From assembly GCF_988242995.1 (NCBI RefSeq), contig NZ_OZ547043.1: a stretch of DNA of 64,000 bases, one strand, 5' to 3'. Positions 3,579 through 37,819 of this stretch are shown here, piece by piece (the stretch's first letter is position 1; each line of letters begins with the position of its first letter). A model generated the notes under the pieces. That model did not search any database. It had not been told where the DNA came from and worked only from the letters and a program-made list of their open reading frames with translations. Position numbers and translations under genes: made by a program.

Positions 3579-4226
<648 letters not shown>

Positions 4227-4342: not shown

Positions 4343-4372
4343 TTCTGCATGGTTATGCATAACCATGCAGAA
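4343..4372. terminator. Perfect 30-bp palindrome (TTCTGCATGGTTATG/CATAACCATGCAGAA); probable rhtA terminator
   Basis: Exact reverse-complement symmetry read from the sequence. It starts 9 nt downstream of the rhtA stop on the minus strand and is followed there by UUUUUCGC. Confidence 0.6.
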
Positions 4373-4380
4373 ATGTAAAT

Positions 4381-5268
4381 TTAATTAATGTCTAATTCTT
4401 TTATTTTGCTCTCTTTGCGTACTGTCAGCGTAGACCCCATTGAAGCGGCGATGATAGCGCCGAGCGCCAGCAGCTGTATGGGTGTCAGTGTTTCTCCGAG
4501 GAAAATCATCCCGGAAACGGCAGCCAGCGCCGGTTCCATGCTCATCAGCGTACCAAATGTCCGTGTTGGCAAACGGGTGAGGGCAATCATTTCCAGCGAA
4601 TAAGGCAGAGCGGTCGAGAGAATAGCGACCGCCAGACCCAATGGAATAACCGACCAGTGCCAGAGTGCTTCACCAGCCTGAAGCGCTCCAATTGGCACGA
4701 AAATTAACGCTGCAATCAACGAACCAATTGCCACCGTCGCAGGGCCATGTTCCGCTCCTGCGCGTTGCCCACTTAAAATGTAAATAGCCCAACAAGCCCC
4801 GGCCCCCAGAGCCAGCGCACAGCCGGTTAAATCGACATGGGAAACGTCTTGCCCCAGCGGTAGCAGGAACCACAGACCAAGAACCGCCAGAACAACCCAG
4901 ACGAAATCTACCGGGCGACGAGAAGAGAACAGCGCCACCGCCAGTGGTCCGGTGAACTCCAGCGCCACCGCAATACCCAGCGGTACCGTCTGAATAGAAA
5001 GATAAAAAAGATAATTCATCCCCCCCAGCGAAACGCCGTAAAACAACAGCGGTAACCGCTGCTCTTTGGCAAAGCGCAGTCGCCATGGCTTAAAGAACGC
5101 GATGAGGATCAGCGTTCCTAATGCCAGACGCAGCGCAGTGACACCCGGTGCGCCCACCAGAGGAAAAAGTGACTTAGCTAACGAGGCTCCACCCTGAATA
5201 GACGCCATGGCAACGAGCAATATGACTATTGGTAACCAGACCGGCATTTTACGTAATGAACCAGGCAT
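4381..5268 (-). CDS. rhtA: Threonine/homoserine exporter (DMT superfamily)
   Basis: Multi-pass membrane ORF; start taken at MPGSLRKMPVWLPIV... (295 aa), the second Met of the track ORF. Matches RhtA. Confidence 0.9.
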   Translation of the reverse strand: MPGSLRKMPVWLPIVILLVAMASIQGGASLAKSLFPLVGAPGVTALRLALGTLILIAFFKPWRLRFAKEQRLPLLFYGVSLGGMNYLFYLSIQTVPLGIAVALEFTGPLAVALFSSRRPVDFVWVVLAVLGLWFLLPLGQDVSHVDLTGCALALGAGACWAIYILSGQRAGAEHGPATVAIGSLIAALIFVPIGALQAGEALWHWSVIPLGLAVAILSTALPYSLEMIALTRLPTRTFGTLMSMEPALAAVSGMIFLGETLTPIQLLALGAIIAASMGSTLTVRKESKIKELDIN

Positions 5269-5620
5269 CCTTTCTCCCACAAATATCTAGACTTAAGTAA
5301 AGCGTGGAGTGTACTGGATATACCCAATGCTGGTTGAGCATTTGTTGAAAAAATTTTCCCCCGTTTTGACTAAAATGCGCCAGGATTGATGGAATCATTA
5401 GTCTGGTGATTAGGAATAATCTGGATGAATGACAGGGAAAACATGCGTAATACTTACGCAGTTCTCTGAAAAAGTGATTTAAATTTAGATGGATAGCGGC
5501 GTATGGAAACGTTCTGTTACATGAAATGGCCCGTTAGACATCACAAATCGCGAAGAGTTTCCCATTAATTTTTGATATATTTAAAACTTAGGACTTATTT
5601 GAATCACATTTGAGGTGGTT

Positions 5621-12907: not shown

Positions 12908-15283
12908 TTAACGCATCCATTCACTCCCTTCAACACCATTGACCAGCAGCGTGCGTTTTTCTTCCACTGGTAATGACACTTTCAGTGCACTCCATGCAGG
13001 TCGATAATCCCCGCGCGCGTTGACTTTCAGGTTGATGGTCGCCCCATCGCAAACCATTTCCCATTCCACCCAAAGCGCATTACCAGTTTGGTAGCCCCAG
13101 CTTTCGCCATCGTCTTCAAACAGCAGGCCGGACGTTGTGCCCACACCTTTCAGCGGGAACAGTTTCAGTTCGCGGGTATCGTCTTGTTCTGCGCTCACAT
13201 AGGTGATGCGTTTGCTGAGCGGTAGACCAGCCCCGGCACGCACCATCAGCGGCAGTTTCTCCAGCGGTGCGTCGAGGGTGATCCACTGACCGCCACTGAA
13301 CCATTCGCCGTTGTAGAAATCGTACCAGCCAGTTTCGTTATCTGGCAGCCATACACGGCGCTGGCGCTCGCCTTGCTCTACGACGCTGGCAACCAAAATA
13401 TCGCGACCAAGCAGGAAGTCATCACACTCTTCAAAAGTCTGAACGTCGTGCTCGTGGTCAAGGAAAGTCGGACGTAGCATTGGTTCATCATCGGCGTATG
13501 CCTGCCACATCAGGGTATAAAAGTAGGGCAGCAGGCGATAGCGCAACTCAATAGCGCTGCGGATCGCCGGAGTGACGCCCGGATACATCCACGGTTCGTT
13601 TACGGTATGGTCATCGTTCCACGAGTGAATCGTAAAGCGCGGATGCATCACGCCGTTTTGTACCCAGCGTACAAACAGTTCCGGGTCCGGCTTATCACCG
13701 GAGAAACCGCCGACGTCGTGACCGAGGTTATACAGCCCGGAGAGGCTCATCCCCAGACCCATGCGGGTGTTGTAGCGCAGAGTGTCCCAGCTAGTGCGGT
13801 TATCGCCACTCCAGGTCTGCACGTAGCGCTGCATTCCCGCGCAGCCGGAGCGGGAGATCAAGTACGGACGTTTTTCCGGAGCGAAACGCTGCTGGGCTTC
13901 CATCGAGGCTCGCATCATCAGCAGTGGCATCACTGGGCGAATATGTTTGATCGCGATCGTCTGACCAAAGCCGTGACAGCGTGCTTCACCGTCCCATACT
14001 TCGAATTCGTTGTTGTCGTTCCAGGTGGAGTCGATACCCATCTCCAGAAGCTGTGTGGTCACGCCTTCCTGCCACCACTGGATGGTCTGCGGATTAGTAA
14101 AGTCGAGGTTAGAACCTTCGTCATCCCAGAAGCTGGAACGTTCTGGTTCATCTGTTTCTGAATCACGGATGAACAGTCCTCTTTCTGCCACTTCGTTATA
14201 GCGTGGGTGATCCTGCAACAGGCACGGCTTGATATTGGCGGCCAAGTGCAAACCAGCATTGTGAAATGCCTGGCTCATCACTTTCGGCTGCGGCACTTTG
14301 TCGTAATTCCAGTTGAACACATAGCGCTTGCCGTTAATTGAGGTATAACCGGAAGAGAGCTGGAACGAATCGCAGGGAATCGCATGTTCTTCACACAGGC
14401 GGATAAAGTTCATCAACTGATTTTGTGCGTCCGGCGCATCGGTGTAGTGCATAGTTGAACCGCTGTAGCCCAGGCTCCATTTCGGTCCGAACAGGGTTTT
14501 GCCGGTCAGGCGTACGAAGGCTTTGGTGATATCAAGTACGCGTTCGCCGGTAAACAGGTAGTAGTCGATATCACCCGCTTCCGCCTGCCAGCGGCGATAG
14601 GCGGTGTGGTAGTTGTCGATCTCGTTGCCCAGATCCAGCCAGCAGCTGCTGAGGTTGTCATAAAACAGGCCGAAGCTAACGTCATCGCGGCGGGTGATGG
14701 TGAATGGAATGTGTTTGTACAACGGGTCAGTACTAACGGCGTTGTAGCCCATCGCGTCGAGGTTACGCATCTCGTAACGTTTACCGTTGCGTTGCAGGTC
14801 GCCGGCTTTATCTCCGAGGCCATAAAAGCGTTCATCTTTACGACGGCTCTGATAGTGCGCCACGCCGTCGCCGTGGGCATTCAGCAGATAAGCGCTGGTC
14901 GGGCGGTCATTCACCAACGGCAGCCATTCGCCTTCGTTGTTACGATAGTGCCACTCCAGCCACAGCGGCTGGTGAACGGTGGCACGCAGTGACTCGGTGG
15001 CGATAACCACGGTGTCGTCGTGCTGGATCAATGTCCACGCGGGCAGGCTAAAGCCGCTGAGATCTTCGCGGCTGCGCCCTTCCCATGGCACATCCTGCGC
15101 CGGAGCAATGCTCCAGGTGCGATCCAGCGCCAGCTCGCCTTTGCGTTTTAACAGCACGCGGAACAGATTTTCTTCCAGCACGTACAGGCACAGGATATGC
15201 TGGCCATCGACCAGCAGTTCAACGTGGTGGGCAGACTGTTTGTGCAGGGTCCAGTTTTTCAGCGTTTTCATGTTTACATCCAT
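12908..15283 (-). CDS. Glycoside hydrolase family 31 alpha-glycosidase, cytoplasmic, substrate unknown
   Basis: 791-aa ORF with a GH31 nucleophile-region motif (GIDSTWNDNNEF, compare WIDMNE) and acid/base-region motif (VQTWSGDNRTSW). No signal peptide. Start may be the ATG at 15283 or 15271. Confidence 0.85.
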   Translation of the reverse strand: MDVNMKTLKNWTLHKQSAHHVELLVDGQHILCLYVLEENLFRVLLKRKGELALDRTWSIAPAQDVPWEGRSREDLSGFSLPAWTLIQHDDTVVIATESLRATVHQPLWLEWHYRNNEGEWLPLVNDRPTSAYLLNAHGDGVAHYQSRRKDERFYGLGDKAGDLQRNGKRYEMRNLDAMGYNAVSTDPLYKHIPFTITRRDDVSFGLFYDNLSSCWLDLGNEIDNYHTAYRRWQAEAGDIDYYLFTGERVLDITKAFVRLTGKTLFGPKWSLGYSGSTMHYTDAPDAQNQLMNFIRLCEEHAIPCDSFQLSSGYTSINGKRYVFNWNYDKVPQPKVMSQAFHNAGLHLAANIKPCLLQDHPRYNEVAERGLFIRDSETDEPERSSFWDDEGSNLDFTNPQTIQWWQEGVTTQLLEMGIDSTWNDNNEFEVWDGEARCHGFGQTIAIKHIRPVMPLLMMRASMEAQQRFAPEKRPYLISRSGCAGMQRYVQTWSGDNRTSWDTLRYNTRMGLGMSLSGLYNLGHDVGGFSGDKPDPELFVRWVQNGVMHPRFTIHSWNDDHTVNEPWMYPGVTPAIRSAIELRYRLLPYFYTLMWQAYADDEPMLRPTFLDHEHDVQTFEECDDFLLGRDILVASVVEQGERQRRVWLPDNETGWYDFYNGEWFSGGQWITLDAPLEKLPLMVRAGAGLPLSKRITYVSAEQDDTRELKLFPLKGVGTTSGLLFEDDGESWGYQTGNALWVEWEMVCDGATINLKVNARGDYRPAWSALKVSLPVEEKRTLLVNGVEGSEWMR

Positions 15284-29566: not shown

Positions 29567-31105
29567 ATGGCAAGAGCTGTACACCGTAGTGGGTTAGTGG
29601 CGCTGGGCATTGCGACAGCGTTGATGGCATCTTGTGCATTCGCTGCCAAAGATGTGGTGGTGGCGGTAGGATCGAACTTCACCACGCTCGATCCGTATGA
29701 CGCAAATGACACGTTATCTCAGGCCGTAGCGAAATCGTTTTACCAGGGGCTGTTCGGTCTCGATAAAGAGATGAAACTGAAAAACGTACTGGCGGAGAGT
29801 TATACCGTTTCCGATGACGGCCTTACTTACACCGTGAAACTGCGGGAAGGAATTAAATTCCAGGATGGCACCGATTTCAACGCAGCGGCGGTAAAAGCGA
29901 ATCTGGACCGGGCCAGCGATCCGGCGAATCATCTTAAACGCTATAACCTGTATAAGAATATTGCCAAAACGGAAGCGATCGATCCGACAACGGTAAAGAT
30001 TACCCTCAAACAGCCGTTTTCAGCGTTTATTAATATTCTTGCCCATCCGGCGACCGCGATGATTTCGCCGGCAGCGCTGGAAAAATATGGCAAGGAGATT
30101 GGTTTTCATCCGGTGGGAACCGGGCCGTATGAACTGGATACCTGGAATCAGACCGATTTTGTGAAGGTGAAAAAATTCGCGGGTTACTGGCAGCCAGGAT
30201 TGCCCAAACTGGACAGCATAACCTGGCGTCCGGTGGCGGATAACAACACCCGCGCGGCAATGCTGCAAACCGGTGAAGCGCAGTTTGCTTTCCCCATTCC
30301 CTACGAGCAGGCCGCACTGCTGGAGAAAAACAAAAATATCGAGTTGATGGCCAGTCCGTCAATTATGCAGCGTTATATCAGTATGAACGTGACGCAAAAG
30401 CCGTTCGATAACCCGAAGGTCCGTGAGGCGCTGAATTACGCCATTAACCGCCCGGCGCTGGTGAAAGTGGCCTTCGCGGGCTATGCAACGCCAGCTACTG
30501 GTGTGGTACCGCCGAGTATCGCCTACGCGCAAAGTTATAAACCGTGGCCTTACGATCCAGTGAAAGCGCGCGAATTACTGAAAGAGGCGGGATATCCCAA
30601 CGGTTTCAATACCACGCTGTGGTCGTCACATAACCACAGCACCGCGCAGAAAGTGCTGCAATTTACCCAGCAGCAGTTAGCGCAGGTCGGGATTAAAGCC
30701 CAGGTGACTGCGATGGATGCCGGACAGCGGGCGGCAGAAGTCGAAGGTAAAGGGCAAAAAGAGAGCGGCGTGCGGATGTTCTACACTGGCTGGTCGGCTT
30801 CAACCGGCGAAGCTGACTGGGCACTATCGCCGCTGTTTGCCTCGCAAAACTGGCCACCGACGCTGTTTAATACCGCGTTTTACAGCAATAAACAGGTGGA
30901 TGACTTCCTGGCTCAGGCACTGAAAACTAATGATCCGGCGGAAAAGACCCGTTTATATAAGGCGGCGCAGGATATCATCTGGCAAGAGTCGCCGTGGATC
31001 CCGCTGGTGGTAGAAAAACTGGTGTCGGCACACAGTAAAAACCTGACCGGTTTTTGGATCATGCCAGACACCGGTTTCAGCTTTGAAGACGCGGATTTGC
31101 AATAA
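29567..31105 (+). CDS. gsiB: Glutathione-binding periplasmic protein
   Basis: [26 protein letters not shown] signal peptide; 512-aa substrate-binding protein (family 5). The track's upstream extension is rejected. Confidence 0.9.
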
Positions 31106-36819: not shown

Positions 36820-36833
36820 AATTAGAATAGTGT

Positions 36834-36859
36834 TAGTACCCCTTAATCAAGGGGTACTA
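36834..36859. other. Perfect 9-bp-stem inverted repeat (TAGTACCCC-ttaatcaa-GGGGTACTA) at the dgcI / TA-module junction
   Basis: Read directly from the sequence; no flanking U-run on either strand, so the terminator role is uncertain. Confidence 0.4.
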
Positions 36860-36888
36860 ATGAATGTGGTAAATCATTTGCAAACATT

Positions 36889-37218
36889 TTACTTTGCAAA
36901 AACTTCCGGCCCTTTTATTGCCAATGTATTCAAAATACGTAATGCCGGGCCGCTCGGTTTTATTTCATTACGTTCCCATTTCGAGACACTTTCTTTTGAC
37001 ATTCCCATTGTATGTGCCAGCACGGATTGTGACATGCCGTATCGGGTGCGGATGGCTTTGATCTCTTCACCCGTCATTGATTTGACTTTGGCTATACGGG
37101 CGCTGACTTCACGAGCTTTGACCATGACGGCAATGGCATCAACTTCACTATCAGACATCAGGCCCAGTGCATTCAGTTCCTTTGCATCTTCCAGCATCAT
37201 TTGTAATTTATCGCTCAT
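36889..37218 (-). CDS. Type II antitoxin, HTH-XRE family (C-terminal helix-turn-helix)
   Basis: 109-aa ORF; the C-terminal segment ...IKAIRTRYGMSQSVLAHTMGMSKESVSKWERNEIKPSGPALRILNTLAIKGPEV fits an XRE/Cro-type HTH. It overlaps the upstream toxin ORF by 11 nt. Confidence 0.7.
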   Translation of the reverse strand: MSDKLQMMLEDAKELNALGLMSDSEVDAIAVMVKAREVSARIAKVKSMTGEEIKAIRTRYGMSQSVLAHTMGMSKESVSKWERNEIKPSGPALRILNTLAIKGPEVFAK

Positions 37219-37594
37219 TTTTCACCTCAATCAAAAAGCCAGTTTCGATCAAATCCTCTATTTGCTTATTGCTAAAGGCCAGAAATGCATTTGCCATTTT
37301 TTTGTAGGCCGCCAGTTCATCATCTTCGATTTCTTTGGTTCCTTTACTGCTTAGACCACTCTTGGACCAACCATCATAAAAAAACACATGATTTGCTGAT
37401 TTAAAAAAGATAATTGTTCTGGCTCCACCACTCTTTCCTTGTTGGAGGGGTAAACGTTTTTTGATGACACCGCTACCTAAATCAGCCTCCCATATGCCCT
37501 GCATCACTTCTTCAGCGGCAGCCATGAGAACTTTATCGTGAATACCAAGTTTTTTCGTGCTTTGGCTGAATCGTCTTGCCTTATACACACCCAT
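37208..37594 (-). CDS. Type II toxin, RelE/ParE superfamily (HigB-2/Gp49-like)
   Basis: 128-aa ORF preceded by SD AGGATGG; toxin-first gene order with an HTH antitoxin downstream, as in HigBA-type modules. The family call rests on pattern resemblance (GGARTIIFF...GWSKS...KEIEDDEL), not on an alignment. Confidence 0.65.
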   Translation of the reverse strand: MGVYKARRFSQSTKKLGIHDKVLMAAAEEVMQGIWEADLGSGVIKKRLPLQQGKSGGARTIIFFKSANHVFFYDGWSKSGLSSKGTKEIEDDELAAYKKMANAFLAFSNKQIEDLIETGFLIEVKNER

Positions 37595-37609
37595 ACATCC
37601 ATCCTTGTG

Positions 37610-37635
37610 GTAATGTTTACTATAGTAACCATTAC
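37610..37635. promoter_or_regulatory. 26-bp near-perfect palindrome (GTAATG-tt-TACTATAGTA-ac-CATTAC), candidate autoregulatory operator of the TA operon
   Basis: Starts 16 bp upstream of the toxin ATG; the central TACTATAGTA is perfectly palindromic. Confidence 0.5.
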
Positions 37636-37819
37636 GCTTATTTCAAGTAATTGCGATCAAAACTTTAATTTGGTGTGAAAAAGTGAGAGTTGCCTCGAGT
37701 ACGATTCATTTTTCTCGATTTATGCGTCAGGGGATTTTGTGCGTAAGGGTAGGACATCGGGAAGGGCAGCAGAGGCAGATCGAAGAACAATATCCTTGTT
37801 AGATCTGCCTTAAGATTAA

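Follow-up and report, generated by a model that had tools for sequence, protein, structure and literature searches.

The locus raises the question of whether the 26-bp palindrome at positions 37610–37635, immediately upstream of a toxin gene, is the operator through which the neighbouring antitoxin represses its own operon. Self-repression by the antitoxin is the ordinary control arrangement of toxin–antitoxin modules, and a candidate autorepression operator had been proposed here in a first-pass annotation of the window, the whole 64-kb stretch of DNA that was analysed. The proposal was supported computationally by the overlap of the palindrome with a predicted promoter, a layout conserved in related loci, covariation between antitoxin and operator, and the precedent of relatives. 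The palindrome is very probably the place where the antitoxin binds and shuts off its own promoter.

The toxin–antitoxin gene pair and its cassette

The gene assignments given beside the palindrome, a toxin and an antitoxin with an HTH domain, were confirmed by a PF06296 toxin and an antitoxin with a C-terminal HTH_3 domain. Both genes are encoded on the minus strand, which refines the earlier description. The toxin gene comes first, and the antitoxin gene follows directly downstream on the same strand with an 11-nt overlap.

37208..37594, minus strand: toxin gene, 128 aa, HigB2 family (Pfam PF06296), from the Pfam match and the family profile
36889..37218, minus strand: antitoxin gene, 109 aa, proposed repressor, from the HTH_3 match and the fold model
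~36820..37813, no strand: toxin–antitoxin cassette (~1 kb) between dgcI and rimO, from comparison with the empty site

The toxin matched PF06296 over its full length, with an E value of 6.9e-33 and a score of 113.8 bits (cut-off 27). PF06296 has been named as the HigB2 family, V. cholerae HigB2 included (PMC11980606). A search of the PDB with the single toxin sequence gave no match, and a profile of 27 toxin homologues matched V. cholerae HigB-2 in the PDB. The active-site residues of VcHigB2 are K49, R51, R64, Y82, and K84 (PMC10098735). Residues K45, R47, R59, and K78 of the toxin were identical to K49, R51, R64, and K84, respectively, and were invariant in the family alignment, and W76 stood in place of Y82.

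The XRE-type HTH_3 domain of the antitoxin comprised residues 53–94 in the Pfam match. When a profile of 30 antitoxin homologues was compared with the PDB, HigA-2 was the best match (E = 6e-13), followed by P22 C2 and then MqsA (2.5e-6). The AlphaFold model of the antitoxin had a pLDDT of 92.5, and its closest folds were HigA2 structures. The best Foldseek matches were 5jaa, 8a0x, and 5j9i, with which the C-terminal domain was aligned over ~60 residues with an rmsd of 1.1–1.2 Å and a TM score of 0.83; according to its PDB title, 8a0x is a HigB2–HigA2 tetramer on operator DNA. In the N-terminal, putative toxin-binding region, confident helices were drawn at residues 2–17 and 23–41. Judged by sequence, the gene pair is a HigB2/HigA2-type type II toxin–antitoxin module.

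Membership of the antitoxin in the MqsA family was considered and rejected. The TIGR03830 match had an E value of 1.8e-12 with a score of 47.1 bits, under the family cut-off of 61.8, and PF15731 scored 20.6 (cut-off 30); the TIGR03830 and Pfam matches spanned only residues 31–106. The 109 residues include no cysteine, so the two-CxxC N-terminal zinc-binding domain is absent. The antitoxin was therefore not assigned to the MqsA family, on the missing zinc-binding domain and the scores under the cut-offs.

The cassette stands where K-12-type strains carry a 42-bp terminator hairpin, and rimO corresponds to ECs0915 (yliG). It was present in 1128 of 5426 complete E. coli genomes (~21%), O157:H7 among them, so that an uncharacterised module is carried by about one in five of these genomes. 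The promoter region of O157:H7 was identical to that of the window and was therefore uninformative for comparison. The allele of E. coli strain BS-01 was left out since its assembly was full of homopolymer errors. A literature search for this E. coli locus with the protein accession and guessed locus tags retrieved no relevant publication. The cassette boundaries, at ~36820 and ~37813, are far from the palindrome, which lies ~180 bp inside the nearer one, and a role of the palindrome as a cassette junction or recombination site was rejected.

Both ends of the cassette carry inverted repeats of their own. The repeat at 36832–36861, TTAGTACCCCTTAATCAAGGGGTACTAA, has at least 12 of 13 pairs and lies at the far end, just past the antitoxin and dgcI stop codons, where it is probably a terminator that substitutes for the K-12 hairpin. 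At the other boundary, a 15-nt inverted repeat at 37773–37810 (AGGCAGATCGAAGAA / TTGTTAGATCTGCCT) lies directly past the rimO stop codon; since no T-run follows it, transcription from rimO may continue past it in the direction of the toxin–antitoxin promoter. Two database records are also of note. A 1.2-kb contig from a Collinsella sp. MAG (JAIJJM010000872.1) encodes a toxin and an antitoxin 100% identical to those of the window, with the same toxin upstream sequence; its presence in that bin is almost certainly a binning error, with E. coli as the true source. A 730-kb E. coli ‘plasmid’ record (CP088669.1) encodes a toxin 100% identical to that of the window, and its size suggests a chromosomal fragment or a chromid labelled as a plasmid. 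Real plasmids (Coxiella, Piscirickettsia, Rhizobium, and Providencia) frequently carry more distant toxin homologues.

The palindrome and the overlapping predicted promoter

The element reads GTAATGTTTACTATAGTAACCATTAC on the plus strand and GTAATGGTTACTATAGTAAACATTAC in the orientation of the genes. It was divided, together with its surroundings, into the following features.

37610..37635, minus strand: composite 26-bp palindrome, proposed tandem operator O1 + TATA + O2, from the repeat search, shuffles, and conservation
37625..37635, minus strand: putative O1, upstream 11-bp site GTAATGGTTAC, GTAA-N3-TTAC, in the -35/-10 spacer and abutting the -10 hexamer
37610..37620, minus strand: putative O2, downstream 11-bp site GTAAACATTAC, GTAA-N3-TTAC, covering the predicted start and 2 nt at the 3’ end of the -10 hexamer
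37641..37646, minus strand: predicted -35 hexamer TTGAAA, 16-nt spacer, from the promoter scan
37619..37624, minus strand: predicted -10 hexamer TATAGT, at the palindrome centre, from the promoter scan
37599..37605, minus strand: Shine-Dalgarno sequence AGGATGG of the toxin gene, read directly

The near-perfect inverted repeat that had been described was borne out. The two arms (37610–37622 and 37623–37635) are 13 nt each, with 12 of 13 pairs (92%) and a spacer of 0 in the inverted-repeat search, and the sole mismatch is pair 7, T37616 against C37629. The distance of 16 bp to the toxin ATG was reproduced, with 15 bases between 37610 and the A at 37594, and the AGGATGG motif was located between them on the minus strand, at 37605–37599. 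The centres of O1 and O2 are 15 bp apart, with the TATA between them.

The 26-mer occurs once in the 64-kb window. Zero-spacer palindromes of 26 bp with at least 12 of 13 pairs numbered three in the window, whereas 200 dinucleotide-preserving shuffles averaged 0.04. These counts bear on the possibility that the symmetry is incidental, that is, that a plain promoter with A+T-rich symmetric DNA around its -10 hexamer is present and no repressor acts on it. The region is A+T-rich and the central TATAGT is itself nearly palindromic, but shuffling of the 225-bp intergenic region yielded such a palindrome in only 2 of 20,000 cases.

One palindrome in the window is better than that at 37610–37635. 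It is a perfect 26-bp zero-spacer palindrome, CTGCATGGTTATGCATAACCATGCAG, at 4345–4370, in A+T-rich DNA that separates the end of an rhtA-like ORF (4381–5280, minus strand) from the start of a dps-like ORF (3579–4205, minus strand), and may be either a terminator or the site of a regulator. The GTAA-N3-TTAC core occurs five times in the window, compared with 0.55 expected. The three extra cores, at 5447–5457, 14774–14784, and 29993–30003, lie once in the rhtA–ompX intergenic region and twice within long ORFs, all without a TATA flank. They are probably chance matches, but may instead be off-target antitoxin sites.

The overlap of the palindrome with a promoter, which the autorepression proposal called for, was found in the promoter scan. 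A sigma-70-like promoter on the minus strand at 37646–37619, with 10 of 12 matches, was the best and sole strong one in the region, and its -10 hexamer coincides with the palindrome centre. The predicted transcription start is at ~37612, in the downstream arm of the palindrome. O1 is thus placed within the -35/-10 spacer of the predicted promoter and O2 over its -10 and +1. The scan of the region found no divergent promoter on the plus strand. In the relatives described below, a purine-rich block was kept at the position of the Shine-Dalgarno sequence, and the TTG of the -35 hexamer was weakly conserved at a variable distance. The best -35 candidate was 19–20 nt from TATAGT in several relatives, and the -10 register could therefore be either TACTAT or TATAGT.

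Conservation of the sites in related loci

A total of 80 loci with toxin relatives, 35–74% identical in addition to one contig identical to the window, were collected from species-representative genomes. A palindrome was located just 5’ of the toxin gene in nearly all of them. The cassettes were diverged and their genomic contexts unrelated; the layout 5’ of the toxin was kept, and the flanking DNA was not. When the loci were anchored on the palindrome, the shared layout was an 11-bp 4-N3-4 palindrome abutting a -10-like hexamer. This arrangement was present in 62 of 71 non-identical upstream regions, compared with 20.2 ± 3.4 in shuffles, and a strict count requiring a perfect palindrome and a hexamer of at least 5/6 gave 19 of the 71 regions, compared with 0.6 ± 0.8 in shuffles. 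The counts were taken from a scored search with a shuffle null, as a scan for perfect 4-N3-4 sites only was too strict and missed many loci. The positions of the sites clustered at -41/-42 and -26 from the start codon.

The enterobacterial relatives (44–74% identity) showed GTAA-N3-TTAC, TATA, and GTAA-N3-TTAC in exact register. All 20 two-site enterobacterial loci carried the composite in register, and O1 and O2 were always exactly 15 bp apart, centre to centre. In these loci the four GTAA/TTAC blocks and the TATA were conserved, the TATA most of all, and the N3 bases and flanks were not. The conservation of the central TATA could result from promoter function alone. The reading of the symmetry as incidental is opposed by the blocks outside the -10 hexamer, which stay in register across genera while the neighbouring bases do not; the TTAC block of O2 in particular was conserved although it lies outside any promoter element.

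The O1 site was present in the relatives examined, including the single-site loci and the Coxiella toxP promoter, and O2 was found only in the enterobacterial clade. Five loci, two from Pantoea, one from Providencia, and two from Chimaeribacter, had the upstream site and the -10 hexamer only. The distant relatives examined (35–44% identity) had one site with the core xCAC-N3-GTGx, which was often placed 26 nt 5’ of the ATG. The basic unit was therefore taken to be the 11-bp site at the -10 hexamer, because the single-site relatives keep just that site. The comparison favours two putative tandem 11-bp palindromes around the TATA as a better description of the element than one 26-bp site.

The alternative is a single 26-bp operator occupied by one antitoxin oligomer, for example a dimer or a toxin-bridged tetramer, that reads the outer or the inner repeats only; this would still be autorepression. 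The overall dyad symmetry is kept, and the outer half-sites change together, as in one locus with GTAC...GTAC. The spacing of O1 and O2 is invariant, and the single operator of V. cholerae accommodates either one dimer or one HigB2–HigA2 tetramer (PMC11006873; title of 8a0x). However, the upstream 11-bp site alone is retained in several enterobacterial relatives and in all distant relatives examined, and 26 bp exceeds both the 19-bp repeat and the 24-bp footprint of one HigA2 dimer (PMC11006873). A single operator was accordingly considered rather unlikely, and the two-site reading was preferred.

A nucleic-acid structure, such as a hairpin in a leader or antisense RNA or a DNA cruciform, was also considered, as the element can be drawn as a 10-pair stem that has a TATA loop and a single internal mismatch. 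A stem would keep its pairing, but dyad pairs 6 and 7 of the 26-mer were complementary in 30% and 20% of the loci, respectively, which is the chance level. The RNA fold of -7.7 kcal/mol was no better than that of shuffles (z = -0.43), the element had no Rfam match, and no T-run follows it. In addition, transcription is predicted to start within the element, which would leave only its last few bases in the mRNA. An RNA hairpin or terminator at 37610–37635 was rejected on the fold energy, the Rfam search, and the non-complementary N3 positions, and a structural role in general was given almost no probability. Since the N3 bases vary among loci and do not pair, the blocks point to protein half-sites rather than to a hairpin or cruciform.

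Another protein, either a host regulator or a recombinase of the cassette, might also be the reader of these half-sites, given that the cassette is an insertion in ~21% of E. coli genomes. The element, however, does not lie at a cassette junction. It moves with the toxin–antitoxin genes into unrelated contexts and genera, and it changes with the antitoxin sequence. A site for another protein appeared extremely improbable, and the antitoxin remained the preferred candidate.

A further observation concerned the start of the operon in distant relatives (L036–L082, e.g. L036, L042, and L053). The -10-like hexamer ended 6–9 nt before the start codon with no Shine-Dalgarno sequence, and leaderless transcripts are probable for these operons. 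A joint ‘transcription/translation start site’ is also mentioned in the V. cholerae paper (PMC11006873).

Comparison with known systems and covariation with the antitoxin

The closest characterised system was HigB2/HigA2 of V. cholerae (PDB codes 8A0W and 8A0X), which shares the PF06296 toxin and the toxin-first order. HigA2 binds the toxin through its N-terminal region and carries an XRE HTH domain at the C terminus, and was the best match to the antitoxin in sequence and fold. The VcHigA2 footprint is 24 bp long, includes TGTACGC-N5-GCGTACA, and extends from just past the -35 across the -10, and the protein is a repressor in vivo (PMC11006873); an inverted repeat between the -35 and over the -10 is common to both loci. 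However, the V. cholerae operator is one 7-N5-7 repeat for one dimer, whereas the E. coli locus has two 4-N3-4 sites with a GTAA core, and the proteins are only ~23–28% identical. Because the footprinted VcHigA2 operator differs in this way, the basis of the 4-N3-4 reading is the comparison of sequences and the MqsA analogy. If each site extended to ~19 bp, the length in V. cholerae, the central TATA would belong to both O1 and O2, and binding to the two at the same time might lead to a clash.

ToxP of Coxiella burnetii QpH1 (CBUA0028), with the partner AntitoxP (CBUA0027), is a direct homologue of the toxin, with 35.5% identity. Its promoter reads TTGACA, a 17-nt spacer with TCAC-TTA-GTGA, and an abutting TATAGT. 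Both AntitoxP and the toxin–antitoxin complex bind the toxP promoter in EMSA, and loss of the plasmid de-represses the promoter (PMC10098735). In contrast to the E. coli locus, the C. burnetii promoter is plasmid-borne and has one site with an xCAC core instead of GTAA, and PMC10098735 maps binding to the promoter, not to an operator. The annotated toxP start of C. burnetii pQpH1 (locus L084, CBUA0028) lies 90 nt upstream of the ATG supported by homology (L084:502); if translation began at the annotated position, the coding sequence would include the TTGACA/TATAGT promoter and the palindrome. In A. baumannii, HigA2 represses its own promoter with HigB2 as a co-repressor (PMC5906591).

The MqsA palindromes are ACCT-N3-AGGT with a free spacer sequence; the promoter of E. 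coli has two of them and that of P. putida one (PMC5422877). The 4-N3-4 geometry of the conserved sites matches that of MqsA, and MqsR/MqsA also shares the variation between two copies and one, the toxin-first order, and a related C-terminal HTH domain. The resemblance is one of possible working only: MqsR is not a PF06296 toxin, the core sequence is different, and the N-terminal zinc-binding domain of MqsA is absent from the antitoxin here. Proteus vulgaris HigA provides another comparison, in which an HTH antitoxin dimer binds to each of two inverted repeats, O1 and O2, that overlap the promoter (PMC12266136). The P. vulgaris HigB–HigA operon is likewise toxin-first with two operators over its promoter, but the toxin and antitoxin belong to other families, and the operator sequences and spacing are unrelated.

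The alignment with these repressors located the probable DNA-reading residues. The base-contacting residues R68, E71, N72, and R77 of VcHigA2 were aligned with E76, S79, K80, and E85 of the antitoxin, respectively, and residue 86 adjoins the equivalent of R77. MqsA residues N97 and R101 (PMC5422877) were aligned with E76 and K80. Across the family, base 4 of the half-site was A in 47/48 with Ile86 and C in 81/98 with Lys86, a covariation partly confounded by phylogeny and including few independent events. Ser79 tracked T at base 2, where Gln, Lys, or Arg79 tracked C, and residue 83 tracked base 1. GTAC half-sites occurred in both enterobacterial Lys86 subclades, which indicates two or more changes along the tree of antitoxins. 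Such covariation is the pattern expected if the antitoxin reads these sites, and it also speaks against incidental symmetry, so that a plain promoter with no repressor was judged very improbable.

The palindrome is thus probably the operator of a HigB2/HigA2-type operon, made of O1 and O2, at which HTH dimers of the antitoxin repress transcription. In the proposed mechanism, dimers formed by the C-terminal HTH domain, alone or with the toxin, would bind O1 and O2 and block RNA polymerase at the -10/+1 region. The synthesis of both toxin and antitoxin would thereby be repressed, and loss of the antitoxin would relieve the repression. We infer binding at O1 and O2, the number of dimers, the transcription start, and any effect of the toxin on binding from comparative analysis. 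The predicted promoter and operator provide a ready design for binding and reporter work.

A more tentative extension, possible but with the balance against it, is that the HigA2-like family follows a recognition code and that the site was duplicated across the -10 hexamer in the enterobacteria. In such a code, a 4-N3-4 core would abut the -10 hexamer, and single residues in or near the recognition helix would set single bases: Ile86 would specify A and Lys86 would specify C at base 4, and Ser79 would specify T and Gln/Lys/Arg79 would specify C at base 2. The duplication at a fixed 15 bp in the enterobacterial branch would give a two-dimer switch, possibly cooperative or sensitive to the toxin ratio, that is absent from V. 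cholerae. The family comparison suggests these residue-to-base rules for HigA2-like repressors. If true, the rules would explain how paralogous toxin–antitoxin modules avoid cross-regulation, and orthogonal repressor/operator pairs could be built; otherwise, the locus would represent a textbook autoregulated HigBA2-type toxin–antitoxin promoter.

A separate arrangement was observed in five Pectobacterium loci (L044, L047, L049, L054, and L059). Instead of the usual site, a near-perfect palindrome of ~40 bp, GCCCGATATTACTATGGTA-gttat-TACCATAGTAATATCGGGC, was located 50–60 nt 5’ of the toxin gene, and the antitoxins differed in their recognition-helix residues (N76, Q79, V85, and S86).
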